DNA of 64,000 nucleotides from Raillietiella orientalis (Eukaryota): NCBI GenBank assembly GCA_036172245.1, contig JAYWIR010000026.1:992001-1056000 (forward strand). The letters are read 5' to 3'. The first letter of the stretch is position 1. Each line of letters starts with the position of its first letter. Shown piece by piece: positions 32,801 through 61,748 of the stretch. The notes below the pieces were generated by a model that did no database searches, was not told the DNA's origin, and saw nothing but the letters and a program-made list of their open reading frames with translations. A program made the position numbers and the translations under genes.

Positions 32801-33228
32801 ACCTCCCAGTGTCTGAGCGCGTTAACCGGCATGACGGCCAGCAGGTCGTCCTGTCGGACCCCGACGCGCAAAAGCTCATCCCAAAGGTTTTCTCCGACCC
32901 CTTCGGAGATTGCAACACTCTCCGGATAGCAGAGCGCAGGCTTGTAGCCATGGGCTGCATATGCCTGCAGCTTCGATTCTTCGGGCGGTGCTCCGTTGTG
33001 TGCCACCGCCTTGACGACGGCGGCGAAGCTTCTCGCCGGTGGCGAGACACAAGAATCAGAGGCGGGCCGGACATCTGGAGTAGAGTCTCCACTGCCAGTA
33101 GCAGCCTCCACATCCATCTATTACTGCAGGGGCTCCGTGGACATCCCAGTGGACGCACTCGGGCACACCACACACAAAATACGAAAAGGAATCACGCTCG
33201 AGGAGCAACACAGAACACGTCCGTGCGG
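29832..33228 (-). mobile_element. Copy A2 (lineage 1): 5' end through early RT, frameshifted; inverted near-duplicate of A1
   Basis: Long stretches read as the reverse complement of 18952-22037; 5' CCGCACGGACGTG at 33228-33216. Confidence 0.92.
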
Positions 33229-34692
33229 GTGTACTCGTGGAGCGGATTCCGGCCATCGACGAATGCGGCGCTAAAGAACTCGCTGCTGCCCCTGCTCAAC
33301 CCTTTGTTGACAAAGTCAACAAGGAAGTGAGCGAGGCGGCGGCGTCCGTCATCGAGCTCACGCTCGATGACGTCGCCTTCGAGCGCGCCGCGGAGGAACT
33401 GGCTGCCTCGTTGCAGCCAGCCGCCCCCAAGGCTTGCAAGAAGGCCGTCAGGAGTCCGGCTTCCCCTTAGGAGTCGGCCACTTCCGACCCCGAGGTGGAG
33501 GCCGGAAATACAGCATCCATCTTTTCGGCACCCCGCAAAAAGGCAGGACGAAAGTCCACAATGCCCCGGAAGATCGTCTCCCCCGACGAAGGGGAAGAGA
33601 TGGCTTCCGGCTGCGAGGGTGCGATGAGCGTGGAAAACTCCCGAGACCCGCCGCTCGAAAGAATCTCACGCTCCGGGACGGAGGAGATGGAGGGGGTGGA
33701 GGCCGAACAGGTGCCCCCGGTGCCTGAAGAGGCCTCCGTCCCCATGGACATCCCCAACACCTGCCCCGCGGCAGGTGGTGCAGCGCCACCTTCGCAGCAT
33801 TAAAGCCGGGAATCGCGTACCGTGGTCGTCTGCTTATCGCCTGCTGGAACGTCAACGGGCTAAGCAACGACGGCAAGAGGCGTGCCGCGGCCGCCACCCT
33901 AACCTCCTTCCACTTGGTGCTCCTGCAGGAGATCCACGTGATCTCCGCAGATCAAGCCCGGGAGATCGAACGGATCTCGGGTGGTCGGCTGCTGTGGCGC
34001 TGCGGTATCGCGAAATCAAGCGGTGTCGCCTTCCTGCTCCGGCCAGACATCGAGGCCGCAATCAAGGACGTACGGTTTGATGACGCCGGTCGCGGCGGTC
34101 AGCTGACTCTCAGCTGGTCCGACTCAATCGACCTGGTCGTCACCAAGTTGTACGCTCCTTGCGGTAAGGACGAGTTGAGGGCGAAGGCAAGAAGAGAATT
34201 CTACCTTGCCCTCGGACGCGATTGCCTGATCGAAGCAGGTGTTCGCAAAGCGCACCTAATCGCAGGTGACTTCAACCTGCGCCTGCTTTCAGCTGCGCTG
34301 GATACACTGAACGACCGCGTCAACGAGTTGTGCGCGCAAATGCACACGTGCAACTTGCTGGCCGGAGATACGGACATGGAACGGAGCATCGATCACGTGC
34401 ACCTTGACCAGCACCTATGCTCTCGCGTGGGCAGGCGCGGCAAGTTACCGTCCGAGCTGTCGGACCATGGCCGAATCGTGTTCGAAGTGCATCCGCGCGA
34501 CAAGGACCCCCCCTCGTCAACATGGCGTCTCTCAGGGGACCGGCTGAAGCTCCCGGACGCGGCGGAACATCTCCGCACGTTCATACGGAACTTCAGGATT
34601 CGGACGCTTCAGGACTGGGACCGCTTCAAGCGGTCGGTCCAGGAGTTTTGCGACCGGTTCCCTTTGCATCGCCTACCTGCGGGATTTGGGGT
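33229..34692 (+). mobile_element. Copy H (lineage 2): ORF1 tail + endonuclease, bounded by A2 and C2
   Basis: VLVERIP..AAEELAASLQ; WNVNG, LQEIH, GDFN, IDH, SDH; ends at RLPAGFG. Confidence 0.88.
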
Positions 34693-37600: not shown

Positions 37601-40316
37601 GAGGGCAGGCGGTCCAGGGGGAACTGCTCGCAGAATTCCCGGACCGATTCCTTAAAATGGTCCCAGTCTTGGAGATTCCGGAGCGTGACGCTTCTCAGGT
37701 ATTCGCGAAGGTGTTCCTTCGCACCTGAGAGTCGCGTCCAGTCCCCCGGCAGACGCCAGTCTCTGGATGGCGGTCCTTTGTCGCGAGGCCGCATCTCGAC
37801 AATTAACCGGGAATGGTCCGACAACGTTGACGCAACCCTCCCCCGTTTGCCGACCCGTGAACACAGGTCAGCGTCGAGGAAGACGTGGTCGATGCTGCGG
37901 ACCATTCCCCTCTCACCCGCGAACAAGTTGCGCGCACGCATGGCGGCGCACAACTCGGTCATCGCGTTCACCTGTGTTTCCGGCTCACCTGTTAGCAGGC
38001 GGAGATTGAAATCTCCCGCTATCAGGTGAGCCTTCCGCACGCTCGTGTTCGCCAGCCAGTCGCGCTTCAAGGATTCAAGCAGCCTGGTACGGTTGCTGTA
38101 TCCCTTTTGACCGGGTGGGGCGTACACATTCGTGACGATCAGATCGATCCAGTCCGACCAGCCGAGAGTCAGCTGACCGACCCGACCGTCGTCATCGAAG
38201 CGCACGCCCTTCACGGCAGCGTCGATGGCCGGCTTCACGAAGAACGCGACCCCGGAGGTGTTGCGGATGCCGCATTGCCAGTACAGCCGACCCCCCGCGA
38301 TCGTCACGATCTCCTGGACGTCTGCCGCGGTGATCACGTGGATCTCCTGCAATAGGGCCAGGTCGAACTCCCGCAGGGTGTCGGCTGTATCTCGCCTGTT
38401 ACCGTCGTCGCGCAGCCCGTTGACATTCCAACAGGCCGCGCGAATCCGACGGCGACTGGCGAGCCCAGGTGTTACTCCTGGGAAGATGGCAGTGTGGCGT
38501 CCGCCACCTGCTGGGGCGGGACGCTAGGTGGAGCAGGGGGGTCAGGTGCTGAAGGCACCTGGTCCCCCTCCTCCATCGGTGCCGGCGCGTCGGCCGGATC
38601 ACCCGCAGGTGGAGTCGCGCCTACCTGTTCGCCCTCCACCATGGGGGCGGGCTGTTCAGGGTCGGCGCCTGCAGGGGGGACTTCACCCCCCTGTTCACCC
38701 TCCTCCATGGGGGTGGCCGCATCGACGGCTTCCGAGCGTGGGAATTACTCCTCCGAATTTCCCACGCTGGCGACGGCTTCCGTCTTCTCCTCCTCGCTGG
38801 TGGAGGGGAGGCGCCTCCTGGGCTTCTGGGACTTGCGTCCCGACTTCCTGGGGGGTGCCTCCGAGGAGGAGGATGTGCTTCCGGCCCCCAGGTCTAACTC
38901 ACCTTTTGGGGCCTTCCTCGCCGGAGCCGGCCTTCGCACGGCCTTGCGCGAGGGGTTCTCACGCTCGGCCAGCGTGACCGCGAGCTCCTCCGCCGCCTGC
39001 GCGAACGCGGCGTCCGCGGCTTCGACCGCCGCTATGTCGCGCGGCTCACCCTCTCTGTAAACAGAGGGTTCGCCATCGCGAGCCTCGGGCGCAGCGGAAA
39101 CGGCAAGAGGAGGATCGACGCTCCGGGTGGCAATCTCGGGAACGACGATTCGTTCGAGTGCCACCGTGCACTCGCGCAGAGTTTTCGAGCGCGGACCGGG
39201 TTTTTTTGGCTTTCCGGCCGTCTTGCGCTCTTTGCTCTCCGCGGGTGGGAGTTTCCTTGGTTTTCTGGCCTCTACAAGCTGCCATCCCTCTTCGCCTTCC
39301 ACCGTTTCAGAAGGTTTATCCTCCGGCTTACGCGCCGGAGGTTCAGGTGTTGGCAGCTTGTGCTGGCCCTTTTCCACTTTAGGTCTAGAGATTTTTTTAG
39401 CGCGTTTCCCCTGCGCTTTTTTCGCGGCAGGGGGAACCGGGATGGGACGTTTTGGGCACACGCGCCGAACGTGGCCCCGCTCCCCGCACAAATGGCATTG
39501 TATATTGGGACACCTTTTACGTAGGTGTCCCACGGTATCACAATGCCCGCAAGACCGGGGCTTCCCTACATACCACAGGTCGACGTTTTCTTGCGCCACC
39601 TGTAGTTTGTGGGGAAGCCCACAATTCTCCCGTACGGTCACCCGCGCTGCAGCCTGCCCACCAAAAAGGCTATCGAAGCCGTCGAAAATGGAGGGTTTCG
39701 GCCACAGTGCGTGCACCTCACCGTACTTTCTTAATTCCTCACCCACCGCTGACCGCGTCATGCGGCTGGTGATGCCAGTCATGTGGACCACCACGGAGCG
39801 GTCCATTGATACTGGCAGGATCTTTCGGCCGTCTACGTTCAGCGGCGCATGGATTAGGCGGTGAGCCAAGGTGACATCTTTGCAGACCACCTCGACCCGC
39901 TGCCCGCCGCTGAGGACGGAGAGGCCGTCCAGATCCTTCTCAGTAACGTTCGTGTCCTTCAACGCTTTGCTGAAGGCGCGCGCTGTCCGGCCGTCGAACA
40001 AGTTGCCTACCTGGTAGACAAGCGATGGCTTGTACCCGGAGGCCTTGTATGCGGCCATCTCCGCCATGGCTTCTGCGCTGGGCGCGGCCACCATGGCGCT
40101 CCATGTCCTCGGCGTGGCCGGGGATGATTCCGGGGCGGCTGCCCCTGCTCCAGTAGGCTGTGGGGGCGAACTAGCCTCCCCCACTCCCACCTCCATCGCG
40201 GTGTCCTCTAGCGTCGTGGCCATTGGACACCGACGATGTACACAAAACACCACACAGAAGAAAAAGCGCTTTCCTACTACTCTTTGGGGAGTGAAGGAAA
40301 AACACGTCCTCCAACT
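34693..40316 (-). mobile_element. Copy C2 (lineage 2): both termini present (~5.6 kb), frameshifted
   Basis: GGACGTG 40309-40303; ORF1 from ATG 40223; APE-RT frame 38352-36793; YADD ~36500; hairpin 34696-34722. Confidence 0.92.
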
Positions 40317-41752
40317 GGCCGCGGAGGGTTCTGGCTGCAACGATGCAGCCAGCTCCTCCGCCGCACTCTCGAAGGCGGCGTCATCGATCACGGTCTCGAT
40401 GACGGATGCTTCCGCCGGTTCGCTCCCCACGCTGTTGACATTTTCAACAGTGGGTTGCTCGTCGGTAGCAGCGATTTCTACCTTGCGGCGTTCTGCGAGG
40501 ACGGATTCCACGACGACGCTGCATTCTTTTAAATTCTCGCTAATTTGCTGTTTTTTATTTTGATAGGCGAGCTTTTTTTCAATTCGTCGTTTTTGCTTCG
40601 ACTTTTTCTTTTTCGCTGTGGCTTCTTGCCATTCCGACACCTTTCCGCTTTTGTCGATCTTTTCGGCATTCGTAGTCGGGGTGTCGGCTGCGGCCTGGAC
40701 CAAGGGTGTGGGTGGCACAGCTTGAGCGGCAGCCTTCGCCGCCAGCCTTTTCTGTAGCAGCTTCGCGCGTTTTTTTAGGTTCCTCGCGGAAACCACGCGC
40801 ACAGCGGATTGTGGGCACACTTCCTTCGTGTTTTCCATTGTCCCGCATACCTGGCACTGTATGTTGGGGGACTTCCTTTTGAGGTGTCCCGACGTGTTGC
40901 AGAAGCTACAGTATTTGGGCTTCCCTACGTTCCAGAGTTCGACGCTTTCTCCGCCGACCACCAGTTTGTGGGGAAGGGTAGAGCCCTACCGATCGGTTAC
41001 ACGGGCAGCCGTGAGGCCGCACTGAACTGTGGTATAGTCCTCGAAAGGAGTAGGCTTGGTCCATACTGCATGGACCGTGCCTTCTTTTCCCAACGCGGCG
41101 CGTAACTGTTCTTTCCGCATTCGCGCGGTAACTCCTAAAAGGTGGACCACCATACTGTGGTCCGCCGTAATGGGAAGGAGCCTGCGTGTCCCTATCACCA
41201 CGGGGGTACTGAGCAGACGTTGGGCCAGATCTGCATGTTTGCAGATCACCTCTACGCACTGCCCCCCGCTACGAATGGTCATAGCGTAGAGCTCCTCCTC
41301 TTTAACATCGAGAGCGCGCATCCCCGTCGAAAAGGCGCACGCACTCTCAGAAGAATACAAATTTCCTACCTTGTAGAATAGTGATGGGTTATACCCCTCT
41401 TCTACATAAGCAGATAATTCCGCCGCGGCTGCAGGCGTTAGCGCCGACACGACGGCGCTCCACGCCCGCGCTGCAGCGGGGACCGGTTGTGTGGGGGCAG
41501 ACGCCCCCACCTCCATCGCCACTGACGGCGACGTTGCCGCCGCTTCCTGGCACTCCAACTTTCCTAGAGGCGACGTTGCCGCTGCCACCTGGCACTCTAT
41601 TTCTTCAGGAGGCGACGTTGCGACCGCCCCCTGACGCACTGGTGGTCGTGTCAGGCATGGCTGCCTGATCGATCACCACCACACACCAAGCCTACACCTA
41701 CGGACGGTTCCCGGCACAAGGAGCACCGAGGAAACATGACCGCTCTAACCAA
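40317..41752 (-). mobile_element. Copy E1 (lineage 2): 5' end and ORF1 only
   Basis: 5' UTR and ORF1 (EEGYNPSLFYKVGNLY) closely match 63990-62600. Confidence 0.88.
41505..41630 (-). repeat. 42-nt tandem coding repeat in family E ORF1 (AAATSPxxxxECQ), three units here and two at 63800-63870
   Basis: GGCGACGTTGC recurs at 42-nt spacing (41527, 41569, 41611). Confidence 0.7.
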
Positions 41753-41768
41753 CGTAAAGCTTTCGATT

Positions 41769-43943
41769 GCCTGGATAGGATAGAGGGTGGGAGGGACTCG
41801 GCGGGAGCCTTTGCAGTCGCGGTCGACTTGCACAAAGCATTCGACTGCGTCGATGAGGAACACCTTTTGGAGCTCCTGGAACGCATGGGTTTCCCGGCCT
41901 TGCTCCAGTCCTACCTGCGCTCCTGCTGGCGCAACGCGTCAATAAATATTGGTTCCAGCGGCCGGCACGTGTGCGGCGTGCCAGTGCGCCGCGGTATCCG
42001 GCAGGGTGACAGCCTGAGCCTTTTGCTCTTCAGCATCTACTTCGAGTTGGTGCTGAGGGCATACAGGGTAACTCTGGCAACCCTGCCGAGGTCGTGTGCC
42101 GAAACGCCTGCCGTGTCGGCCTATGCAGACGATCTTCTGCTGCTGCTTTCCGCGTCCTCCCCGGCGAGTGCGCTCGAGGACTTCAAGTTGCTGCGCCGCT
42201 GGACGGGCCTGGAGGTGAACAGGGCGAAGTCGTCCATGCTCTTTGTCGGTTAGGCGTGGGCTGGACGGTCGGACTGGATCCGCTTGGGGATCCCCACGGG
42301 CAGGTGCTTCAAGTACCTCGGCGTACTGTTGGTGGACTTCTGCGCAGCAGAAGTTATGTCCGACCGTCTCCAAAAGGCAGCGTTGGCGATCGGTCCTTTC
42401 CAAGAAGGCAAGTTCTACTTGCAGGAACGGGCCGCAATGTGGAACACGTTTGCGGCCCTCCTCCTTCGCCCTCTACTTCTTGTTTGCCCCACCCCTTATT
42501 TTATTCGGAAACGAGCAGCGGGCCTCCTGAGGACAATCCTTTGGGGCAAAGGGAGTTCCCGTGTGAGGCTCAAAGACTTGTGCGCTCCACGTAAGGACGG
42601 AGGACTTGGCGTACTTACGCTGGAGCGCATGGAACTCCAACTCCGATTTAAGACTCTCGCCCTCGCGGCCGAATTGTGGGACACGCCTTGGTGCGTTCCA
42701 GCACGCCTCCTGGCCCAACGAGCGTGAGTATCCGGCGGACTTTTGTCGTTTCTGTCTGCGCGCGTCTGCAGAAGAGCACACTGTGGCTCTATGCTGCGAC
42801 GCATCTTCGTTGCGGTTCGGAAGAATGCCTGGATCTGCTGCCTCCCAGGGAACTACTCTGCCTGGTTGCACGAGTCAGTCTTCACCTGGGATAAGATCCA
42901 CGTTCCGGCGAGCACAAAGAACACTTGCCTGGAAAGGCACTCCCGCTGGACGCTGCAGGAGATCGTGCAGTCCCACGACAAGCTTCTGTGGACCTTGATA
43001 ACCCCCCTCGCCCCAGTGCTGCCCTACCTTGTGAATGCCAGGGACAGTAGCGAGCAGGGGAAATGGACCGTGTCCTACACTATGGGCGGCAGGACACAAT
43101 CGATAAAGGCGAGGACATCTCGGCAGCTAGCTGACGCTGCGACGTCGAGTGTCCCGCCCAACGGAATTCGACGCTGGGGCGGGCGACTCGGACTAGCTCC
43201 GGAGGAGATGAAGTGGCCCCCAGCGTCCTGGAACAGTGCATCCCTCCCCCAGAAATGGCAGGATGTGGCGTTGCTTGTGGTACTCTGGGGATAACCATTT
43301 AATGCACGCCTGCACCACACTACCTGGGGGGCTGTGGATTTTAATTGTGACCGGTGTGGGGAAAAAGAAACATTCCCCCACCTTCTCCTTTAGTGCAGAG
43401 CCGTGCGCCCTTTGTGGGATCGTCTCGCGGCGATCCTGGACGTGCGCGGATGCGGCCCAAAGGACGTTTTAAGGCGCCTCTTTTGTAGTGACGCCTTGTC
43501 TTCGCCCGCTAGTGTAGCAGTCCTCTGCTGCATCAGAGGAATAGTGGCGGCTTGGAACGCCACCAGAAGAAGGCGTCAGCCAACCGGCAACGCCTTACAC
43601 TGGACTCGCCTTTTCGCGCGCAGTGTCTGCAAGTGGCGCCACTTAGGCGCAGAGAGGACTCAGCTTGTGCGGATCCTAAATAGGATCTAGAGGACCTTTC
43701 CACGCGCACTGTGATCCCTTCCACGCCCTCCCACCCCTACAACATTTGTTCCCATCCACATTTGAACTTTTTGTTTCTTTTTGTTTTTCTTTATTTCCCA
43801 TCCCCACGCATCGGAAGTACCTCTCCGGCATGCAGCCGGTAACCAGCAAGCTGTTTTGGAGTGGTGAACTTTCGAGTTCGCCACGCGACATTTCATGTAT
43901 TTTTATTTCAAAGAAGTAAATGTCCTGGCACATCCGGGTGTGA
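41769..43943 (+). mobile_element. Copy I (lineage 2): RT C-half, CCHC and 3' end, degraded
   Basis: DLHKAFD, QGDSLS, YADD, KYLG, GGLG; AGTAAA plus hairpin 43915-43940. Confidence 0.9.
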
Positions 43944-46119
43944 ATCGCAACGGCGCGCGTCATCATGGACGACCGGAAGCTTATGCCTTCGCAGATCCTC
44001 CTCTGTGACGTCGTCGTCTATCTCCGGTTGGCCGGGCAAACCCCCGCTTGCGGCAACTGCGCGGAGGAGGGCCACCGTCCGCGGAAGCCCCCAACACGCA
44101 GTTGCCGATACTGTAAGCTGCTCGGCCACTCGATTAACGAATGCGCCGAGCTAAAACGTAAGAGGAGGGCGAAAAACCTCCGCGCAACATCGCTGTCCGC
44201 GCCAACTCCATCCTCCCCATCGTCGAGGAAGAAATCCGGCGCGAACGAGGATTCGCAGCGGAGAAGTAAAAAGTCCGCTTGCGCCTGCGATTCTCGGAAC
44301 AATGCTCCACAAAAACCCGCGCGAAAGCACAAGAAGCTTCTCCAGGCTGCTTCAGTGAAGCCCCGAGCGACCCAGCCCGCCGATAACATCGGGCAGGCTG
44401 CAAAACCACCGCCGCTTCCGTCCGCTCTCGCTCCGGAGCGAAATAGCGGTGGCACGCCCGGGAAGACCACCGGAACGTCGAAAAAGGGGTCGCGCGCCAC
44501 TTTGCCCGCGACAGGCAAGCCGGCCACGGCGGGCCGAACGCCAGCAAAGGCTTAAAAGCCTCGCGCGACCACCGAGATTCCCGCTACTCTGCCCGCACCT
44601 TCCGGTAAGGAGATGCAAAAGGAAGACGTGGCGAAGGAGATACTGGCCTCCATCGCCGTATCCGAGGCCTTGGTAAGGATGCGAAGGACCCTGGAAGCCC
44701 TCGCGCCCAACCTAGGCAAACCAGAAGGCGGCGAAGATGGCTGGACCTTTGTTGGGAGAAGGGAGAGATAAAGCAAACCGCGCGATCCTTCCCACTTTCC
44801 AATGAAAAAGGTAAGCGGGGTAAAGAGGCAGCTTCGCGACAAGGAAGGCGCAAGATGAAGCCTCTTCTGGCGTTGCGCGCGCCGCCGCAAACACCCGCGG
44901 CGAGGAGGGAGCTGCCGAAGCCGTGACCCCGAAAGGGGGATCAGCGACGAAGGCACCCTCTAAGAGTGCTGGACCAGCTCCGGGCTGCCAGCAAAATAAG
45001 AAGCAGGCGAAACACCTGCCGCCCGCGCGCAATTCGGACTCCGAGGTGGAGTCCTAGGGCAGCGCTAAGGATCGCCAAGCCCCGGTCAAGGCCAGGGCTA
45101 CGCGCAAACCAAAACTAGCCAGGCAGGTGCCTGATGCCGGGAACGGTTCCCGATGCTCCTCGGAGCCCGAGGCATTGGTCCTCGACTCCACAAAGCCAGC
45201 CACGAGCGGCGCGTCGTGGACAGGAAGCGCTTGCGCTACCTCATCCGCCGTGCTCCCGGCTGATGCCTCTCTGGACAGGGCGAGGAACGCACTTCGATGT
45301 CCGTAGCAGCAATGCGCGGTCTCGCTTCTTCCCGTCGCGTCCTAGTGGCCTGTTGGAACGTCAGGGGGGTTCCGGACAACGTGAAGAGGCGATTGGTTGC
45401 CAACGTCTTGCGCGACTTCGATCTGGCTCTGCTGCAGGAGATTAACGCACTCTCCGAGCAGCAAGCGGCCGATCTGCAAGTTCGCGCAGGCGGGACGCTC
45501 CATTGGAGGTCAGGCTCCCAGAATACCTGCGGAGTCGCATTCCTTGTCCGGGGCAGGGTGGCAGGAGCGGTGCGGAGCGTTTGTTTCGACGAGGAAGTTC
45601 GTGTGGGCCAACTTGTCCTCAAGTGGTCCGAATCGATCAACCTTGTCGTCACGAACGTGTATGCGCCAGGCGGCTCCGCGCGTCCCGCCGAGAAACTGGA
45701 GTTTTTCGAGAGACTGCGCAACCGCTGGCTCAGCAACTCCGGCCCCGACGTGGCTCACCTCGTAGCCGGGGACTTCAACGTCCACGCGCTAGAGGAGGAG
45801 TCTCACCGTCTCCGGGAGAAACGGCTGGTGAACGAGGTGTGCGCGTCGGTGCACGCCTCGAATTTGCTGGCCGACGATCTTGGGATGCGTGCTTTGCCGG
45901 ACCATGTGTTCCTCGACAATCACTTGCATTGTCGGGTGTGTAGAAGAGGTTCCGTGCCGTCCGAGCTTTCCGACCAATACAGGCTGGAGTTCGAGCCACT
46001 CCCGCCTGGCAAGGGCCCTCCGACGCACGTCTGGAGGTTGCCGGCCGACTGGCTGAGAAATCCGGTAGCTGCGGAGCACCTCCGCCAGCATCTCCAAACC
46101 TTGGCCGTTGGAGAGCTCG

Positions 46120-49100
46120 TTTTTCACCCGGTTGTGCCAAGGCATTTATTCTTTGGAATAAAACAAACGTTGGTGGCCGACCAGGTGGTCCGGCCACACA
46201 CTGGTATACAAAATGAAGCCTGCTGGGTCACCGGTTCGTATTCCGGTACGGTCCATCACGACAGCAGAGGGGCCAAGGACAAAACAAAAAATAAAACAAA
46301 AAAAAAAAGAAATATATAAAATCAAGATCTGGGGGCACGGGAAGGGATCACAGTTTCCTGTGGGGCCGTTACATCCTTTGCAGGATGCCGGCAAGCTGCT
46401 TTTGGATGTTTGAATACAAATGGGTCCATCTTATCGCCGTCCGCATAAATTCGGCTGCGCACTGGACGGCACTTTTATCGCGAGGTCCTCCCGTTGCCTT
46501 GCTCCATGAAGCGAGAATCCCGCGAAAGCAGCACAGAGCTGCTAACAAGGCCGAGGACCGAAGGGCGTCGCAAACGAAGAGGGATCTAATTGCGTCTCTG
46601 GGGTTGCCACAGAAGTTACCGATTGCCGCTGCACAACGGTTCCAAAGGGGCCGAACAGCCACACAATCCAAAAGGAAGTGAGTGAGGGAGTCCCGTTCTC
46701 CACACCTCGCACAATTAGGGCTCACCGCTTCCTAGGTACAATGGTGTCGGCGGGCGTTGCAGGGGAGTCCCCAATGCAGAAGCAGTAGCGCCGACTCCTG
46801 CCATTTTAAGGGGAGGGTGGAGGTGTTCATCAGCACCGAGGGCCACTTCAATTGTTTCCGCGGAACATTAAGCAGTTCGCCCCAGCTCAAAAGTCCAATA
46901 GGGGTGGTAGTCCGGGCCGCGGTATCGCAGAGAATTCCCGTTTTCCATTCCCCGATCTTTTTCTCCGTACCGGAGATTTTGATGTAAACATCCCATTTCG
47001 CTGCAGTGTTGCTGTTTAAATGTTCCGCGAACGGAAACAGCATTACAGCGAGGGGAGTTTTTCTTGCCCACGCTCGTTTTTGGGGGTTCTCCAGGACCTC
47101 CCGGAGCGTCAGGCGGTCATTAAGGGCGAAGAATTGTCTCTGCAATTCTTAGGTGCGTTGCTGATTGCTCTTTGCCCACGTCTGAACCGATTCCTGCAGC
47201 CATGCATGTCCGTTAACGTCGCGACAGCAGAGCCATCCTGCGTTCTTCCTCATCAGGTCAGCCACTCTCCAACCCGCAGTGACCGACAAGGCGGCGCCGA
47301 CGGAGCGCAAGGAAGGATGACAGTTTCACCTTGCCTGTAGCCTGCTCGACGAGGAGACGTGCGTTCTCGCACCAACTGCTATTCCAATATTTCGCCACCA
47401 TGGCGAGTAACCGAAACTGGGGCTGGAGCTCCAGCCGCTCTAGCGTCAGGAGGCCGAGACTGCCGTCCCGACGCAGAGCGCTCAAGTCCTCAAGCCGGAC
47501 TCGGGCCCTCCCATTACCCCACAGGGCAATCCTTAGGAGGTCCTTCGTCTGCTTTTAAGTTTCTGTGGTGAGGGGACAAACAAAAAGCAGGGAACGGAGG
47601 AGGGGCGCCGCGAATGCGTTCCACACCGCAGCCCGTTACGGCAGGAAAAATCTTCGGCCTTGAAACGGGCCGATCGCCGTCTCTACCTTTTGAAGGCAGC
47701 TGGACCACGCATCCGAAGGGAGATAATCACCCATCGGTACACTGAGGTACTTGAAGTACCGTACCGTGGGGATCCCCAAACGGACCCAGTCCGACTGCCC
47801 TACCCACGCCGCACCGATTGGCATGACGGACGACTTCGTCCTGTTCACCTCAAGCCCGGTTCTCCGACTTAGCAGGTCGAAGAACTCATCGACCGCCGAT
47901 GCCGGGGTGGACATATGGAGCAGCAGCAGTAGGTCGTCCGCATATGCTAACACCGCGGGCGTACCGGGATAGTCGCGAGGCAGGTGCGCTAGAGTTTCCC
48001 TGTACGCTCTCAGTACCAACTCGAAGTAGGTACTAAAGAGCAAGGGACTCAAGCTGTCTCCCTGCCGTATGCCGCGTCGCACCGGTACGCCGTGCACGGT
48101 GTGTCCACTGAAAAAGATCTGGATGAGCGCGTCGCGCAAGCAGGAACCCAGGTAGGTCAGCAAAGAGACCGGGCAGCCCAAGCGTTCCAGGAGCTCCAGC
48201 AGGAGCCTCTGGTCGACACAGTCGAATGCTTTATGCAAATCGACTGCGACTGCGAGGGGTCCCTCCCCCTCAACCATCCCGTTTCCTAGCGGCGGACATT
48301 CCAGAAGTCCGGTTGCCCATCCTGACCCTTTCCTGTTGGAGCGCGAAAAAGGTGCTGGCGAGGAACAGATTGGCATCCATGCTCCGCCCGGGAAAAGCAT
48401 ATGTCTGCTCCGGGCTAATGAAGCTTTCCGCTAATCGCCTTAGGCGTTCAGCCCACAATTTCGCCAGCAACTTGGCGTCCGCGTTTATCACGGTAATCGG
48501 TCGCCGGTTACTCATGCTCCGAAGGTCTCCCTTAGGGAGGAGACGCACCTTTCCCGAAAGAAACGATGCACGGACGTCACCCGTTTTGCGGATCAGCAAG
48601 GTGAGTTTCTTCACCAGAGGAGTGAGCTTTGCCGCGAAACATTGAAAAAGTTCCGATGGCAGGCCGTCCTTCCCTGGAGCCTTGCGCCTCTTGAGCTTTC
48701 CGATGGCCGAGATGATTTCAACCATCGTGAAAGGCTCGTCGAGGGTCTTTCTATCTTCCTCCCCGATAGCTAGAGCGCCCTCCGGAAGAACAAGTCGCAA
48801 GACATCCCGTTCCGGTGAAGCGCGCGCGTACATGGAGGTATAGAATTTTTTTAATAAGCCTTTTACCTGGGCGGGGGCCGAGTGCACCGAACCCTGGTCG
48901 TCCAGTAAGCTGGCCGACCCGGATTGCCACGCCTGCCTCTCGGCTCCCGCACGGTATTCGGCCAGCCTGCGTACGTCTGGTGTTCACGCTTAACATCGAG
49001 ATTGTAAATACCATCTCTCGTTACGCACGCTTACACCAAACCCGGCAGGCAGGAGGTTCATAGGAAACTCGTCGTAAGAATTCCGGACCAAGCGCTTGAA

Positions 49101-52100
49101 GCGGTCCCAGTCCTGAAGCGTCTGCAAGCTAAAACCTCGTATGAATCCGCGGAAATGCTCCGCGGCTTCCGGAAGTTTCAGTCAGTCCCACGGTAAGCGC
49201 CACGCAGATGACGGCGGACCCCTATGTCGTAAGCGCACCTCGAGTACGATCCTGTCATGGTCCGATAGTTCCGACGGTAACTTGCCGCGCCTGCCTACGC
49301 GTGAGCATAGGTGCTGGTCAAGAAACACGTGATCTATGCTGTCGGCCATTTCCGGATCTCCCGCGAACAAGTTGCGCTTGTGCATCTCTGCGCACAGCTC
49401 GTTCACGCGGTCCCGAAGTGTGTCGGACGCGCCTGACAGCAGGCGCAGGTTAAAGTCACCTGCGATTAGGTGCGCTTTGCGCACTCCCGCTTCGTCCAGA
49501 TATTCGCGCCTCAGGGTAAGGAAGAAATCTCTCCATGCCTTTGCCCTTAGCGCGTCGCTGCCGCTTGGGGCGTACACGTTGGTAATGGCCAGATCGATGG
49601 AGTCGGACCACCTGATGGTAAACTGCCCGACGCGACCGGCACTATCGAACTGTACGCCCTTTGCCGCAGCCTCGACAGCTGGACGTAGCAGGAACGCGAC
49701 ACCGCAAGATTTACCGGTGCCGCAACGCTACAGCGGCCGTTTACCCGAGATACGCTCGATCTATGTTGCCCGATCTGCGGAGATCACGTGGATCTCTTGC
49801 AGCAGCACCAGGTCGAACGATGCCAGGGTGGAGGCCACGTCTCGTCTCTTGCCGTCGTCGCTTAGCCCGTTGACGTTCAACAGGCAATTCGCAGACGGCG
49901 GCAAGAGACGATTCTTGGCATTAAGGCTAGGAACGTGGCGTTGCAACACCTGTCAACGGACAGGTGGGAGCGACGAGTAAGGAAACCGCGGCCATCTCAG
50001 GGACTTGAAGCACCTGGCGCACAGACTCTACCCTTTCCCTCCCTCCGGGGTCGCAGGGTGAGGTTACCTCTCGAGGAGAGTCCCCGGAGTTCCCCACTTT
50101 ATTGACAAGCTCGCTTACCACGATTATCTCTCCCTTTTCCACGGACGGGATAATTTTGCAAGTAGCCTTCTTCGTGCGATTGGCCTTCGGGCGGGAGGCC
50201 GCGATGCAACAGGCTGTTTTTCGCCTCTGGGTCAGAGTTCGGAATCTCCGACTCCTTGATCGAGGTCGGACGCCTTAAGGCATTTTTCGCGGATTTAAGC
50301 TGACGCTGCAAGGACGCAGCGAGCTCCTCCGCCGATCGCTCAAAGGTGACGTCGTCGAGCATGCGTTCGACGACAACGGTGCACTGACGTGTTCTGTGTT
50401 GCTCCTCGAGCGTGATTCCTTTCCGTCTTCTTGTGTGTGGTGTGCCCGAGTGCGTTCACTGGGATGTCCACGGAGCCCCTGCAGCCAAAGATAAATGTGG
50501 AGGCTGCTAGTGGCAGTGGAGATTCTACTCCAGCTGTCCGGTTCGCCTCTGATTTTTGTGTCTCGCCACCGGCGAGAAGCTTCGCCGCCGTCGTCAAGGC
50601 GGCGGCAGCCAACGGAGCACCGCCCGACGAACCAGAGCTGCAGGCATATGCAGCCCATGGCTACAAGCCTGCGCTCTGCTATCCGGTGAGTGCTTCTATC
50701 TCCGACGGGATCGGAGAAAATTTGTGGGACGAGCTTTTCGCGTCGGGGTCCGACAGGACGACCTCCTGGCCGTCATGCCGGTTAACGCGCTCCGAAACTG
50801 GGAGGTGCACTGCAAAGAGGCATCCCTAGTCCAGCGCCTTGTCCGCACCCCGCTAAACATGCGCGGGAAGGAGGTCGTCCCGTCGGCCATCGACCAGTCG
50901 TTCGTGGTCCGATTGTCCGCCGTCCAGGTGGACACGCCCGATCGCGTGCTCGTCGCTGCACTTAGTGCATTCGCCACGTTGCACGCGCTGTGGAGAGCAG
51001 ACAATCCGTTCAAAAGGATTGCATCTCTCCACAGCGGACTCGCCATGGCGGGTGTCACCATGGCGGATAGGAGGCAAATGCCTCCGCACTTGCAGGTGAA
51101 CGATGCGATCGTCCACCATAAATTTGCCGGTCAGCGACCGGCTTGCGGCATTTGCGGTGCCGAGGGCCACCGTCCGTGGACGTGCCCTTCACGCAACTGC
51201 CGCTATTGTAAACAGCTCGGCCACTCCATCAAAAAGTGCGCCGAGCGGAAGAGAAAGAGGCAGGCGAAAAGCCGCCAACAATCGACCCCGTCCGCGCCGA
51301 AAAGATCCCCCGTTGTGCCACGGGAGAAATCGGGCGCGAAGGGCTGGGCATCTTCGAGTGGAGGTACCGCGAAAAAGGGCGCGGTTGCTTCAGTAAAGCC
51401 ATCATCCCAGACAACCGCGCAGACGGGAAAGATGCCACGTCGCCGTGGGGGCAAATCGCTCCCTTCGAAGCAGCCTAAGAGCGCGGGCACGCACTCAATC
51501 AAGGCTGCTTAACCGTCCGCGTCCGCTTGCGCGTCCAGCGGACCACACGGAAAACCGTGCGCGGGTACCCTCGGAACTGCCTCTGAACGGCAGTCTCCTC
51601 CTACGGCGGTGGAGATCACGTCTTCCACGCCGGAGGCACGAGCAGCGAAAGCTGCAATAGCGCCTCGCGGGACGACGGCAATGACCGCCGTTTCGCCCGC
51701 ATCGGCTAAGGAGCAGGTGCAGTGCGTAACGGGGACGGAGCAACTGGTGAGCGAGGTATGCGCGTCCGTGGGCGTGCAAAACTTGCTTGCTGGTGAGCCC
51801 GGGATGGAGAGATCGCCGGACCATGCGTTCCTCGATGAACACCTGCTCTCACGAGTAGGCCGGAGAGGGCGCCTGCTGTCCGCGATTTCGGATCATCCGA
51901 GACTGGAGTTCGAGCTCCTCCCGCCTGGCAAAGGGCCTTTAATGAATGTCTGGAGGCTGCCGGCCGACTGGCTTAGCAATTCGGAGGCGGCGGAGCATCT
52001 CCGCCAACACCTGCAGGGCTGCGCCATCTGTGAACTCGAAGACTGAGACGATCTGAAAAGATCGGTCTGCTAGTTCTGCTGCCGGTTCCCCTTGCACCTG

Positions 52101-55100
52101 CTTCCCCGCGGCTTCGGAAAGGGTGTCGCGAACAGCAGATCGTATCTGCAGGCGCGTACCTTTTCACGATGCCCGGACGTCCGGCGTCTGGCGGAGTATA
52201 AGGCCAGGGCCGAGCGCCAGGTTTCGCAGTCTGGAGCGGCTTGTCTGCTCGATGACGCTGGCCAGGAATGCTCGGCTGCAGCCGAAGTACACCGCGTAGT
52301 CAAGCGCTACTACTCCTTGTTGTACGCGGAGGAGCCCACGGAACGCAGTCTCTCCGAGCTGCTTCTTCCGACGGGCAACCCTGCTATCGACGAGGAGGAA
52401 CGCGCCAGATTGGATTAGCCCTTCACGGCGGAAGAAGTATCTTTTGCCATAGCGGGCCTGAAGAGGCGTAAGGCGCCTGGGGAGGATGGCCTGCCCGCGG
52501 AGTTCTTTCAGTGCTTCGCGGAGGAGCTCGTCCCCCTGGTGCTAAGCCTTTCCTCGCTGATGCGTGAGACGGGAGATGTTCCCGCTTCTTTCCGCTCAGC
52601 AAACGTGCGACTCCTGCCGAAAGGCGGTGATTTGCGCCACCTCAGCAACTGGCGTCCGACTACTTCGGTGAATTCGGACGTCAAGCTGTTCTCCAGGCTA
52701 TGGGTCGCGCGCCTGGGGAGAATCGCAGAGTCCTTGGTAAGTCCGGAGCAGACGTCTGCTGTTCCGGGGCGGTCCATGGACGCGAATCTCTTCTTCGCGC
52801 GAACATGGTTCGAGTTGCAGCAGCGCGTGGCGCAGCAGATCCAGGCAGCCGAAATCGCCGCTGCCAAAGGAAAGCGGCGGTGTTCAAGGCACGATGGAAC
52901 GCCGGGAGCCTTAGCGGTCGCCGTCGATCTCTGCAAAGCGTTCGACAGCGGAAACCAGGACCTCCTTCTGGAGCTTCTGGGACGCCTAGGGCTCCCGACG
53001 CACCTCATCGCCTACTTGCGCTCCTGCTGGCGCCACGCGTTATGCTGTATCTCTTTCAGCGGGCGTCACGTGTACGGTGTTCCCATACGGCGATGTATCA
53101 GGCAGGGAGACAGCTTAAGCCCCCTGCTCTTCAGCATCTTCTTTGAGTTGGTGCTGAGGGCGTACAGGCTGAAGCTGGCCAACCTGCCGAGCTTCTGCCC
53201 GGGAACACCGGCCGTGGCCGCCTATGCTGACGACCTTCTCCTGCTGCTGCCCATGTCCACTCCGGCGTCCAGGCTCGAGGACTTCTTCGAGCTCATTCGT
53301 CGGGGAGCAGGCCTGAGCGTGAACAGGACGAAATCAACCGTTGTACCGGTTGGCTCTACGTGGGAGGGGCAGTCCGACTGCATCCGCCTGGGGATCCCCA
53401 CGGGCAGGCGCTTGAAGTACCTCGGCATTCCCTTGGGCGCCTTCTGTCCATCAGAAGGGTGGTCGGACTGCCTTCACATGGCCGAGACAGCTCTGCGCCC
53501 GTTCCAAGGCGGCAGGTTTGTCCTGTCGGAACGGGCCTTCGTGTGGAACATTTTCGTTGCCCCTCTCCTCCGTCCCCTCTTTTTTGTTTGTCTTCCTCCC
53601 TACTCGGCTAAGCGCCGGGCGCAACGCCTGTTGCGTAACGCCCTGTGGGGACCGGCGAGGTCCAGGATACGCCTGAAGGACTTGGCGGCTCCTCGGCGGG
53701 ATGCAGGATTGGGCATCCTGACGCTGGAGCGGATCGGACTGCTAGTGCAGTTCCGCATGCTGGCACTTTGTGCGCAGCTCTGGACTACTCCCTGGTGTGC
53801 TCCAGCGCGGCTGCTGCTGCGGCGCAGCACGGGTAGCGACGGACTACGTTCGTTGCATCTGCGCACGGAGCGCGCCCAGAGAGAATTCGGCTTCCCTTTG
53901 AAGCAGCTCGCCACGCTTCTGGGGAAGCATGAGTGGATCTCCTGCCGGCCGATGAACTTCAACGCCTGGAGGCAGGAATACTTATCGTCCTGGGCAGCAC
54001 AACAGGATGTGTCCCGTTTAGAGCTCCGTTGCGTGAGACTTTCCCCATACTGTCCAGTGGGGGAGGTGCTGGAAGACCAGGACCAGTGGACACGCCTAGC
54101 CGCTACGCCACTCGCCGAAGCACTGTGTGCACTGATTTTGCGAGATGACAGTGACCTGCCGGCGAGGTTGGAGATCAGTTGCGAAATCGCAGGCGAAACC
54201 CGACTGCTGGGCGGCTGGCGGACTTGCGAAGTGGCTGACGCTGCCACACCTCGCATTCTTGCAAAGGGGCTTCTCCGGTAGAGTGAGCTCCTCGGGGTGC
54301 CCACCGATGAACTTGTGGTCCCTTCTGCGTGTTTGGACGCGACTCTCTTCCCCCTTTCGTTGGAAACAGGACGCTTTTCTGCTGGTGCATTGGGGTTTGT
54401 ACTGCAACCAGCGGGCGCACCTGATTTCCGGGGGAGTTGCGTCCCTGAACTGTGCCAAATGCGGAGCGGTGGAATTGCTTCCTCATTTGCTGTTTGAGTG
54501 CGGTGCCCTCCAGGAGCTGTGGCAGCGGCTGTCTTCAGCGCTCCTGCACCCTGGACACACCGCACTGGATTGGATGCGCCGCTTCTACACGCGTGGCGGT
54601 CTTTCTCTTAAAGCGGTCGTCGCAATCATCTGCTGCGTGCGCGCCATTGTCAGGGCCCGCCACGTATTGCAGATGCGAGCAATCCCAACATCGGTCCCCG
54701 ACACCGCAGCCTGCAACCTGCAACTGGCTGCCGGTTGGCCACATCTTGGAGCAGAAGTGAGGATGGAGATCGGCGGCATTCACCGCCGGTTCCGAGAATA
54801 GGAACGGTTAGATTGTATACCCCTGTCCCCGCCCTCCCACCCAGTTTATTTATTTATTGTCCCACCCCCTCCCGTTCCGAACTCTCAGTGTGCCCGTACT
54901 GCGTTCCGGGAAATCTACTCCCCATTTTCTGTTCCCCTTGCCTGGGAACACAGTTCTCAGTTGATATTATAATGAACGTCCCGGCGCATCCGGGTAATAA
55001 ACGACGGACGCCACCGCCGGGTCGTGAGCCTCCGGCATTAATTTGCCGGAGGGCTAAAAGTCGGCAGCGACAAGTGCAACTTTGTTGCTCTGTTGGACCG

Positions 55101-56276: not shown

Positions 56277-59200
56277 GCTCTTGGACTTGGACGATCTGAA
56301 AAGATCGGTCCGCAAGTTCTGCTGCCAAATCTTCTTGCGCCTGCTTCCTCGTGGCTCCGGGGAAGGCGTCGCCAACAGCAGAGAGTTTCTGCAGGCCCGG
56401 CAATTCTCCCGATGTCTGGACGTCCGGTACCTTGCGGAGTACAAGGCCAAGGCCGAGCGCCAGGTCTGGCAGTCAGGAGCGGCTTGTCTGCTCGACGACC
56501 AGGGCCTGGAGTGCTTGGGCGCGGCCGACGTGCGCCGCCTCCTAAAGCCCTACTACTCCTCGTTGTATGCTAGGGAGCCGACGGAACGCAGTCTCTCGGA
56601 GGTGCTTCTGCCGGCGGATTCCCCTGCGCTCGACGAGGAGGAACGCGCCACTCTTGACTTGCCCTTCACGGCAGAAGAAGTGTCTTCCGCCATAGCAAAC
56701 CTCAAGAAGCGCAAGGCGCCAGGTGAGGATGGTCTGCCTGCGGAGTTCTTCCAGTGCTTCGCGGCGGAACTCATCCCCTTGGTGCTGAGGCTTTCAGCGC
56801 TGATGCGAGAGACGGGCAATGTACCGGCCTCGTTTCGCTCAGCAAGGGTGCGTCTCTTGCTGAAACGCGGAGACATGCGCCATTTAAGCAACTGGCGTCC
56901 CATCACCTTGGTGAATGCGGACGTCAAGTTTTTCTCCAGGATCTGGGTCGCGCGCCTAGGCAGGATCGCTGGATCCGTGGTAAGTCCGGAGCATCTTACG
57001 CTGTTCTCGGGCGGTCCATGGAGGCGAACCTGTTCTTCGCGCGCACGTGGCTTGAGCTGCAAGCTTGCGTGGCGCACGACAGCCACGCCACCGCATCTGC
57101 GGCTGCCCAGGCTAGGCGTCGCTGCATTCGGTCTGTGGAAGAGCCGGGTGCCTTGGCGGTCGCAATCGATCTCCGCAAAACGTTCAAGTTTCACCCGGAT
57201 TTTCAAGGGGTGTTTATTACAAAATTAACATCTACAAAGACGTGCAGTGGCTCGACCAGTGCTCCAGCCACGCACGAAGAAACACAGAGCCTCCCAAGTC
57301 ACCCTACCCAGGTCCAGTGGTGTCTGCGAGAGTTGCATGGGAGTCCCCAGTGCTGCAACAGAAATGCCGACTCCTGCCATTCAAAGGGGAGGGTGTAGGT
57401 GTTTATTTGTACCGGGGACCAATTAAAACGTTTGATGGGAACGTCGAGCAGCGCGCCCCAGCGAAGAAGTCCATGCGTAGGCGTACTCGGGGTGGTAGCG
57501 TCAGTCAGCTGACCCGTCTTCCACTCCTCTCTTCTTCTCCTTTCCAGAGATTCTAACTGTAACCTCCCACTTCGCCGCAACATCACTGTTTACATCTTCC
57601 ATCAGGAAGGGCAGAGCAGCAGCGAGTATGGTTCTTCCTGCCCACGCTCTCTTCCTTGGATCCTTTAGGATCTCGCGGAGCGTGCAATTTCTGTAACCCC
57701 CAAACAGGAACCTTCGTTCCTGTTGCGAGCGTTGCATGCCGAACTGTCCCCACGTTCGAACGGTTTCCCGCAACCAGGCACTTCCGTTTAAAGAGCGACA
57801 AGTGACCAATCCTGGGTTTTTCCGGTACAGCGCAGCCACCCTCCGTAGCTGGGATCCGCATCGGTTGACGCGGCGACGGAGTGCAAGAAACGACGTCAGA
57901 CTGGTCTTGCCGGTGGCTTGCTGGAGAGTGAGACGTGCAGGGACGCACCAACAGGTACACCACAACTCTGGAACAAGTGTCGACAATCGGAACTGGAGCT
58001 GAAGCTCCAGCCTCTCTAGCGTCAGGAGACCCAGACCACCGTCCCGACGAGGAGCGCACAAGTCCTTTAAGTGGACTCGGGCACTACCGGTGCCCCAAAG
58101 GACGATACTTTAAAGGTTCTTTGTCCGCTTTTTAATTCTCTCTGTGGGGGAACAAACAAAAAGCAGGGGGCGGAGGAGAGGAGCCGCGAACGTGTTCCAA
58201 ACCGCGGCCTGTTCAGGCAGGAAAAACCTGCCGCCTCGGAACGGGCCGATCGCCGTCTCTACTTTTTGGAGGCAGCAGGACCACGCTTCCGCAGGGGAGT
58301 AGTTTCCCAACGGCACACCAAGGTACTTGAAGTACCTCACCGTGGGGATCTTCAAACGAACCCATTCCTGCTGCCCTGCCCACGCCGCACCAACTGGCAT
58401 CACGGACGACTTCGCCCTGTTAACCGTAAGTCCGGTTCCCCGATGCAGCAGGTCGTAGAACTCCTCGACCGCCGAAGCCCGGGTGGACATAGGGAGCAGC
58501 AGCAGAAGGTAGTTCGCGTACGCTGAAACAGCCGGCGTACCGGCACAGTCGTGCGGCAGGTGCGCCAGAGTTCCCCTGTACGCTCTCAGTACCAACTCAA
58601 AGTACGTACTGAAGAGCAAGGGGCTCAGGCTGTCTTTCTGCCGGATCCCACGCCACACCGGCATGCCGTGCACGGTCTGCCCGCTGAAAGTAACATTGAT
58701 GAGCGCGACGCGCCAGCAGGAGCGCAAATAGGCCTCTAATTAGGCCGGAAAGCCCAAGCGTTCCAGAACTCAAGAAGGAGATTCTCGTCGACGCAATCGA
58801 ATGCTGTCTGCGAGTCGAATGCGACCGCAAGGGCTCCCTCCCCCACCCGACCACCCAACTTCTTGCCGGCGCACGCACCGGAATTCCGGCTGCGCTTCAA
58901 GCTCCTCTCATTTTGGAGCTCTAGCCAGGTGGAAGCGTGGAACAGGCTCTCCTGCATGCTTCGCCCGGGAACAAAATATGTCTGTTCCGGGCTGATGAGG
59001 ATGTTTGCAACCCGTCCCAGACGCTCTGCCCAAACCTTAGCCAGCAACTTAGCGTCCGCATTTACTATTGTGTTTGAACGCCAGTTGTTCATGCTCCGCA
59101 GATCTCCTCCCTTAGGGAGGAGCCGTACCTTTGCCGAACGAAACGAGGCGCTAACTTCACCGCTCTGGCGTATCAGCATGGTGAGTTTCTGAACCAGGGG

Positions 59201-60036: not shown

Positions 60037-61748
60037 TTTTCACCCGGTCATGCCGGGACGTTTATTTACATAAACGAGCTGGAAACAATTGTTTTTAGCT
60101 CTCGACTCTGAAAACATGCAGCGGAGATTCACTCCTGGCACGCAGGCCAGGAAAACGGAAGAACATGGACGACTGAGGGAAGTCCAAAAAAAAAAAAATT
60201 GTAAATGGGAGGAGTGGGCCAGGGAACTTTGTTGTTGCTCCGCACTCATTGGGAAACTCAAAAGTTCTAGCACAAAAAGGACTCGGGAACGTATGGGGAA
60301 AAGGACGCGAAAACAAAAAAAAACAATCAAAAATAAAATGAGGGCGGATCACCGATTTCGTTGTTCTAAGCCGTTGCTGATCCGGTGATGGATACCGGTT
60401 AGCTCCTCCGTTGTGTCTTCATATAAGTGTCGTTACTCAGCTGCCGACCTCATGAAGTCAGCTGCCTTCTTGGTGACACAACATTGCTGTCCAATATTCT
60501 CCAGCACGTCTCGGACCGTGACGATGGCGCGGATGCAACCAACTGTGGAAATCGTCGCAGCCATCGAAAGTCCTTGTGTCTGGAAGAACCGTCGCAGCAC
60601 TTCTCGAGCGGTGTCTCCTGGTGACGGGAGAGCTGCTGCTAGCCTCCTCCACAGTTCCTGGAGGGCTCCGCAGTCCATAACAAGGTGCGGGAGCGACTCC
60701 TTCGCTCCGCACCGGGCACAGTAGGGAGAAGTCACCCCACCGGAAACTCGGTGGCGCCGCTCGTTGTGGCGCAATCCCCAGTGCAAGAAAAGCGAAACGT
60801 CTTGCTTCCATGCAAGGGGAAACACCGAACCGTCCAAACACCAGGGAGGGACTATAAGTTCTTCGGTGGCAACACCAAGAACTTCTCTTCACCGAAGAAA
60901 CCCCTTTGGTGTAGCACGAGGAGTGGCGGCATCCGCAAGCTCGCTCGTGGTCCATTCGTTAACTGGTTTTGTTCTTCCTGCAGTGGTGCAGGAGAACTCC
61001 CACCTTGCAGGCTGGCTACTGTCATTTTGAGCCTCGAGGGCAGACAGTGCTTCGGCAAGGGGGGTGGCGGTCAAAGAGGAAAGCTTCACTTCGTCCTGCA
61101 TGACATCTTGGAGTGACCAAGGCTGGAATCGACGATGGGGGCGAAGATCTTTACGGCTCATTTCTAAGAATGCAGCCCACGAATCAATGGATTCCTGCAT
61201 CCAAGCATTATAGTTCATTGGTCGGCAGGTAATCCACGTACTGGCTTCCAATAGGGTGGCGATTTTCCTTGAAGGATAGCCAAGTCCCTGTTTCCTGTGG
61301 CGCAAGCCAGGCACCAAAGAAAGTAATCCTTCACTGCCTGCACACCTTTTCAAAAGGCTGCGCGCAGGCGCACACAGGGGCGAAGTCCATAGCTCGGCAA
61401 AAAGTACGAGCATCTGGAACTGCACTTGCAGTCCGATTCGCTCCATAGTCAGGATACGCAAACCAGCATCCCGACGCGGAGCAAGCAAATCTGTAAGGCG
61501 GATCCTGGATCTCGCCGGACCCCAGAGAGCGTTTCTAAGCAGGAGTTTTGCCTGCTCTTTGGCCGCACAGGGGAAGTTCAAGACAAAAAAGAGGAATCGG
61601 AGGAGGGGGGCCACGAAGGTGCTGCAAATAGCCGCCCGTTCCGGCAAGGTGAACTTGCTGTTAATGAACGGGCTGGCAACCAACTCGGCCTTATGAAGGC
61701 AGTCCGACCACGCCTCGGCAGCACCGAGGTCGCCCAACGGAACGAAAA
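60037..61748 (-). mobile_element. Copy L (lineage 1): 5'-truncated insertion with an 11-bp target-site duplication
   Basis: AACGTTGAAAT at 60026-60036 and 61749-61759; APRRDAG, CARCGAKESLPHLVMDC; hairpin 60041-60066. Confidence 0.93.
60041..60066 (-). terminator. Conserved 3'-end signal (AATAAA + hairpin), type example; eight further copies listed in findings
   Basis: Element strand AATAAA-CGT-CCCGG-CATGA-CCGGG-TG-AAAAA. Confidence 0.85.

Follow-up and report, generated by a model that had tools for sequence, protein, structure and literature searches.

Target-like bases at the 5' ends of nested LINEs in Raillietiella orientalis may derive from short 5' transduction

A stretch of 64,000 nucleotides (nt) from Raillietiella orientalis (assembly GCA_036172245.1, contig JAYWIR010000026.1, positions 992,001 to 1,056,000 of the forward strand; here called the window, with positions counted from its first letter) carries a dense nest of long interspersed nuclear elements (LINEs), whose copies have entered one another at conserved coding sites. 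Next to the 5' end of one copy, E1, stands an orphan piece of the site that is the usual target of its family, and the locus therefore raises the question of how a piece of target came to lie there. An earlier note on this DNA had proposed that transcripts start in the flank and carry a copy of the target at their 5' end, which anneals to the new site or helps to choose it. Self-comparison of the window and tblastn distinguished about 25 segments of elements, spread over both strands. For comparison we used X1, a public DNA run of a relative and the one run that a search returned (no RNA run was among the results), in which only a tenth of the sampled words were present and whose uncovered parts were uninformative. 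The features at the E1 junction, and at matching sites of the E family, were as follows.

40323 to 41749, minus strand: E1, the 5' part (5' untranslated region (UTR) and open reading frame (ORF) 1) of an E-family LINE, from tblastn, 5' alignment with copies E2 and K, and tblastx against E2.
41750 to 41781 (about 32 nt), plus strand: orphan KAFD-site piece, CAACGTAAAGCTTTCGATTGCCTGGATAGGAT, translated QRKAFDCLDR, from KAFD-site matches, its right limit from X1 contigs and homology to el18.
41782 to 43939, plus strand: host I, a LINE copy from the reverse transcriptase (RT) to the 3' end, with ORF2 from about residue 566 to its end and an intact 3' hairpin terminus.
13459 to 13475: canonical E-family 3' junction, el5 ...AAAGCATTCGAT joined to TTTCACCCGG (3' end of el6), with the nick TTCGAT at 13470.
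57174 to 57198: second E-family 3' junction at the same KAFD site, el22 ...AAAACGTTCAAG joined to TTTCACCCGG (3' end of E2/el23), with TTCAAG and the nick at 57188.
63983 to 64000, plus strand: 5' flank of E2, resembling KAFD (GCGCACAAGG) and as far from the element end as its counterpart at E1; it ends with the window.

E-family 3' ends lay, in both cases seen, at a single nick that follows the KAFD codons in the RT of another element. The orphan piece adjoined the 5' end of the minus-strand E1 (at about 41748-41752), matched the RKAFDC 23-mer of el10 at 20 of 23 positions and el7 at 17 of 18, and was colinear with KAFD hosts through TGCCTGGAT-AGGA. The el10 23-mer, with up to three mismatches, occurred three times in the window and in none of 100 shuffles. 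The piece is KAFD-site sequence, the usual target of the E family, beyond chance. It consisted of one E-type duplication unit (18 nt, to the TTCGAT nick) followed by 13 nt of downstream host. The earlier note had described a 16-nt orphan, CGTAAAGCTTTCGATT at 41753-41768, that was not colinear with I; this sequence is present and indeed not colinear, but the piece is twice that length. The HKAFD of I itself was found at 41831-41845, as stated there, and the start of I was found 52 nt ahead of the K codon in that motif, compared with the approximately 75 nt given in the note.

The boundary at 41782 was supported from outside the locus. Contigs of X1 with uninterrupted I-like RT copies matched the window from exactly this position (joints 56930 to 41782 and 41781 to 48448), and because the likeness of other RT copies and of these contigs to I starts there, the orphan piece is not part of I. 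At E1 and E2 (two of two) the KAFD-like 5' flank stood in one register. The visible 10-nt flank of E2 matched generic HKAFD copies at 7 of 10 positions, and its own host el22 at 4 of 10 in the register of E1 and at 7 of 10 one register off, the latter by hand count.

Other accounts of this region were rejected. Positions 41775-41800 are not filler derived from a 3' UTR, since the RT sequence GAGGGTGGGAGGGAC of I is homologous to GAGGGGGAGGGAC of el18 just upstream of KAFD. Nor is the orphan el17 ORF1b sequence from upstream of the 3' junction of I, to which it matched at 11 of 30 nt (hand count) as against an exact 11-mer and 20 of 23 nt to RT KAFD sites. The joint 41781 to 48448 does not represent a recurrent orphan in X1, as it is more simply read as an unbroken copy of the RT, each half of which finds its best alignment in a different copy of the window. 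Finally, el5 does not supply the left half that I lacks: in the 64 nt preceding KAFD, I was 70% alike to el5 versus 81% to el18.

Our preferred account of the E1 leader, which we hold tentatively and at slightly less than an even chance, is a short 5' transduction by a transcript that started in its donor's flank. The source copy of E1 would have occupied a KAFD site in an el10-like host, with transcription beginning about 30 nt upstream of the element, in the flank. The cDNA would have carried this flank to the new locus, to be joined out of register to I, 52 nt before the KAFD of I. E1 was probably aimed at that KAFD, with the second-strand break falling about 66 nt away. The start in the flank, the identity of the donor and the sequence of these events are inferred. 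Under this account, the E1/I junction lies 52-66 nt from the KAFD of I because E1 was aimed at that site; were I an unrelated later arrival, the coincidence would be about 4%, as estimated from about 140 nt of an ORF2 of about 3.6 kb. There is also a precedent in the same nest, the A-family copy A3, whose insert opens with target-like bases missing from the corresponding empty site. The A-family features were as follows.

50375 to 50384, plus strand: ten insert-borne, target-like bases, AACGGTGCAC, before the conserved 5' motif (TGACGTG) of A3.
18951 to 18957, plus strand (A1), and about 33223 to 33229, minus strand (A2): CCCGCAC common to A1 and A2, where hosts have CTGCAC or CTGCAT.

The A3 insert spanned 50375-55000, with the target-site duplication (TSD) ACGAC at 50370-50374 and 55001-55005. 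Colinearity with E2 had predicted beforehand an empty site reading ...GCGTTCG[ACGAC]GGACGCC..., with the frame kept and the length equal to that in E2. An X1 contig, a K/el18-type ORF1 without A3, agreed with the prediction; it joined 50369 to 55001, skipping A3, with five shared letters (the TSD ACGAC) and at least 60 letters on each side, although this is one contig of depth 2.1 and its joint was marked 'between: not known'. The ten bases AACGGTGCAC were missing from this local landing site and resembled ACGCTGCAC, the canonical A target as it stands in E2, as well as the matching bases of A1, ACGCCCGCAC, and A2, ACACCCGCAC. A longer A3 leader of 28 nt (24 of 28 to the E2 site) was cut to these ten, given the fit of colinear host sequence (35 of 46 to E2, in frame, hand count) and the empty-site contig.

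The leaders of A1 and A2 agreed at 9 of 10 positions and those of A3 and A1 at about 7 of 10, compared with element bodies that were 91-94% alike (94% for A3 and A1). Because the leaders are less alike than the bodies, flank copied from different donors fits better than a fixed leader. The CCCGCAC common to A1 and A2 differs from the hosts, and so at least 7 nt upstream of GGACGTG belong to the A insert. In an alternative that we consider improbable, target-like bases are built into the element's 5' end (in the A family, ACGSYYGCAC before GGACGTG) and supply microhomology for second-strand priming. A ...GCAC block does precede GGACGTG in A1, A2, A3 and the distant element 'a' (AGGCGCAC, 3507-3514), and a small predicted hairpin, weak at 15 pairs and a covariation term of +1.18, takes in 5 nt upstream of GGACGTG. 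However, the ten bases of A3 differ from A1 at about three of ten positions in bodies that are 94% alike, and the E-like K is without any KAFD-like leader, the 32-nt block of E1 having no counterpart in it.

The A1 flank gave a less decided picture than the earlier note had drawn. The 27-mer from 18931 did match A2 at 21 of 27 positions (hand count), but it matched the sister host E2 equally well (21 of 27), so that it was as near to the host as to the inserted-family copy and did not cluster with the latter. There was nevertheless a local excess of differences beside A1, with a 9-nt indel at 18930/31 and six differences in 18907-18935, whereas the remaining 690 nt had 0-5 differences in each 30 columns; the ORF1 region is itself variable between hosts.

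The remaining judged junctions involved copies K, C1 and C2, with the following features.

56278 to 56292, plus strand: 5' flank of K, CTCTTGGACTTGGAC, ordinary host sequence of el22 that runs on from the end of el17 at 46118.
40310 to 40322, minus strand: thirteen bases, GCGGCCAGTTGGA, between E1 ORF1 and the conserved 5' motif of C2, with no source assigned.

Five full-length 5' junctions were judged, a set that leaves A1, A2 and E2 to one side. Target-like bases foreign to the locus were present at A3 (10 nt) and E1 (about 32 nt), C2 had 13 unassigned nt, and K and C1 had almost none. The 13 nt of C2 agreed with the C-family target at 6-7 of 11-13 positions (hand count), which was no significant match. 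As the earlier note had said, the flanks of C2 are two different sites, the 5' flank in E1 ORF1 and the 3' flank at about residue 311 in ORF2 of another element. Its reading of substitutions in the K flank as the sign of a leader did not hold: the counterpart of the K site, CTCGAGGACTGGGAC, occurs at 21784 (plus strand) and 30385 (minus strand), the three differences in 15 nt are background (el22 and A1 are 82% alike over 112 nt), and the K flanks are contiguous. Variable transcription start in the donor's flank is suggested as the simplest common cause of the junctions with extra bases.

Several observations weigh against a 5' transduction at E1. A leader is not constant in the nest, with K being a clean insertion (at most 2-4 extra nt) and the host at C1 reaching within 1 nt of GGACGTG, with one extra nt. 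The piece has exactly the composition of a true target flank, a TSD unit and downstream host, and a remnant of a former host fits about as well. Either a duplication of about 66 nt or a target deletion is required, versus 3-4 to about 27 nt for the other TSDs. The 3' junction of E1 was lost to the C2 cut at 40323, and its landing site is thus a reconstruction. The comparison covers one window, with one informative copy per family. Searches of the whole window (gathering scores) and of 40150-41850 (E<=1) matched no ribozyme family, although a ribozyme of an undescribed kind is possible.

The rival that draws most on these points is that the piece is a host remnant, which we regard as possible and on the unlikely side. 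E1 would have entered the KAFD site of an el10-like (RKAFDC) RT copy with a TSD of about 18 nt, and a later 5'-truncated I, or a deletion, would have left the TSD and 13 nt. The composition of the piece is exactly that expected, one E-type TSD unit with its inner edge at the nick seen at 13470 and 57188 and then 13 colinear nt. Non-contiguous flanks are also common in the nest (C2; el6, which lies between the KAFD of el5 and about residue 291 of el7; and I), and a KAFD site regenerated by duplication would be re-cleavable. On the other hand, two independent events must meet within 13 nt, and the nearness of the junction to the KAFD of I is left as a coincidence. In addition, the 3' flank of I is ORF1b of el17 and does not carry on an RT host; a second large deletion must therefore be assumed.

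We consider it improbable that a local rearrangement or assembly error at 41749-41782 is responsible, either by repeat-driven misassembly or by a later duplication or deletion apart from retrotransposition. X1, a relative whose contigs were mostly 85-95% alike, gave no independent read support for the interval, and a head-on junction of C1 and A2 at about 29830 goes beyond simple insertion. Nevertheless, the left edge of the piece coincides with the element terminus, the piece stands in the exact register seen at E2, and other junctions resolve cleanly, with TSDs.

The target-like leader proposed in the earlier note was partly supported, in that two of the five judged junctions have such bases. 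No junction pointed to guidance of joining or of site choice by the leader: at A3 and E1 it was kept as extra sequence, unpaired in register. If starts in the flank were routine, every RNA would bear a copy of 10-30 nt of its landing site, pairing with the new site to prime the second strand and perhaps helping site choice. We think this improbable. It would account for the repeated placing of 5' junctions at the same codons, as with the three A copies that share one ORF1 site and the common register of E1 and E2, despite the short AAA(T/A)CG-like endonuclease motif. A leader would be invisible where pairing succeeds, as could be the case at A1 and A2, and the orphans at E1, A3 and C2 would be pairing failures.

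The elements of the nest are LINEs of the apurinic endonuclease (APE) type, and their domains (APE and RT, with a candidate zf-RVT and candidate CCHC knuckles in ORF1) are L1-like, as judged from their translated frames. Pfam searches of 16 long frames identified Exo_endo_phos in three (E 3e-17 to 9e-12), RVT_1 above the cut-off in five (E 9e-25 to 4e-14) and weakly, below the cut-off, in two more, zf-RVT in one (25.4 bits, below the cut-off of 27.5) and zf-CCHC as weak ORF1 knuckles in two (20.3-22.2 bits, cut-off 20.8). The closest database protein was a metagenome RT of 63% identity. Diverged copies of these retrotransposons, which lack long terminal repeats (non-LTR), occurred throughout the window, which had about 60% G+C from 4 kb onwards, and X1 held many copies of the same families that were 85-95% alike. 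A metagenome pattern search with GGCAGCNATGCCTGA returned at least 118 loci, and none among the matches listed encodes these ORFs; they are chance matches.

The termini are shared across families. A 5' block, GGACGTGTT, was common to a, A1, A2, A3, C1, C2, K and E2, with a variant, GGTCATGTT, in E1, and its conservation suggests that it may be the element's own promoter. All eight intact 3' ends had a short hairpin, AATAAACGCCCCGGC-N(4-5)-CCGGGT, and after it G/GAAAA, an arrangement kept across otherwise diverged families; a long A run or poly(A) tail was absent from all eight. Several copies were 5'-truncated with the 3' end intact. Positions of the 3' flanks differed among families, and an AAA(T/A)CG-like motif was common to all.

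13475, 18211, 22043, 34697, 43939, 46126, 54995 and 60042: intact 3' ends with the hairpin terminus.
13470, 57188, 34697, 25031, 46118/56283, 18931/33250 and 61765/60052: landing-site positions in the window.

Landing was mostly antisense, in conserved coding sites of other LINEs: E after the RT KAFD codons, C in the PAGFG region of ORF2, K at LEDWD, A at SVVVE of E-type ORF1, and el24 at GDFN. The LINE families thus appear to parasitise one another reciprocally. The 3' junction of C2 was at 34697, in the PAGFG region, and the 5' junction of C1 was within el10. In three A copies the 5' end fell at the homologous site in ORF1, each time in a different E-type host. K and el18 are a single element (K 56280 to 55000; el18 50354 to 46126) with A3 nested within it, and it lies antisense between host halves el17 (ending ...GGAGAGCTC at 46118) and el22 (starting CTCTTGGAC at 56283), which abut at 21787|21789 in A1 coordinates. 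Element el24 (60042-61812, minus strand) lies inside E2/el23, with the TSD ATTTCAACGTT. Measured TSDs were 3-4 nt for K, 5 nt for A3 and 11-12 nt for el24, with about 16-18 nt for E2 and about 27 nt for C as inferred values.

Not all flanks rejoin in this way. The E-type el6 (minus strand, 5'-truncated at about ORF2 residue 739) stands head to head at 15121 with el7 (plus strand), which starts about 20 nt after LEDWD, at about residue 291; the 3' flank of el6 is the KAFD of el5, and flanks from different copies suggest a probable insertion-associated deletion. At about 29830, C1 (plus strand, cut at about ORF2 residue 997) and A2 (minus strand, cut at about residue 473) meet head-on, both without their 3' parts. 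Because both are 3'-truncated and head-on, insertion alone is insufficient, and a rearrangement or assembly error is implied.

At its left end the nest is bordered by about 3.3 kb of A+T-rich sequence (35-42% G+C), which appears to lie outside it. A 3'-terminal fragment of about 150 nt (3350-3500, minus strand; ...GCGGGTGAAAAA) stands head to head with the 5' end of element 'a' (3507-3515). Further on, a full-length U4 small nuclear RNA (snRNA) at 10928-11065 on the minus strand (Rfam RF00015, 93.9 bits, model positions 1-138) is fused directly to a distant LINE family, 'd', at its 5' end. This looks like an snRNA-LINE chimera formed via template switching, although an element with a habit of landing beside U4 genes could also account for it.

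9765 to 10322, minus strand: ORF1 of family 'd'.
7313 to 9112, minus strand: APE/RT of family 'd'.

Short 5' transduction from upstream starts is behaviour already known for such elements. In LINE-1 (L1), short 5' transductions arise from variable upstream transcription starts, in some copies only. A3, with extra bases inside its TSD that are absent from the empty site of the one contig, is similar. The difference is that the transduced flank of L1 is unrelated to the next target, whereas donors in the nest sit in family-specific sites, so that their flank resembles the target. LINEs are also known for microhomology-mediated joining of 5' ends, usually over 1-5 nt, and for insertion-associated target deletions. 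The few shared or extra bases at 5' junctions of the nest, and the non-contiguous flanks of C2, el6 and I, are of this kind, but the 32-nt block of E1 that matches the target of its own family exceeds the usual length.

In its clustering and L1-like domains, the nest can also be likened to the Zepp and Zepp-like L1 LINEs of green algae, which form highly localised clusters consisting mostly of LINE copies (PMC8226300, PMC9940879). The passages on these elements describe clustering, rather than codon-specific mutual insertion or a 5' leader, and nest elements end in a hairpin and GAAAA instead of a long poly(A). A closer parallel for the leader itself comes from R2, in which, according to Eickbush, Burke and Eickbush 2013 (PMC3774820), upstream ribozyme cleavage keeps up to 36 nt of the 28S target on the template RNA; it was postulated that through this leader the first cDNA strand can pair with its target, with uniform 5' junctions as the outcome. 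The nest resembles R2 in having non-LTR elements with apparent site specificity and, at E1 and E2, a target-like flank in one register. The E 3' junctions lay at the KAFD nick (two of two), while the E-like K is elsewhere, at LEDWD. R2 differs in having a restriction-like endonuclease, rRNA co-transcription and a hepatitis delta virus (HDV)-like 5' ribozyme, as opposed to an APE-type endonuclease and no matched ribozyme family, and the targets in the nest are coding sites of other LINEs.

The evidence comprises one clear case of 10 nt and one ambiguous case of 32 nt, and is a lead, not a result. If transcripts do start in the donor's flank, the nest would present, for an L1-like lineage of the APE type, a set of natural 5' junctions in which the R2 priming idea could be followed outside the rDNA elements. 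If true, it would also help to explain how LINE families come to land in the same codons of one another, building a cluster that feeds itself.

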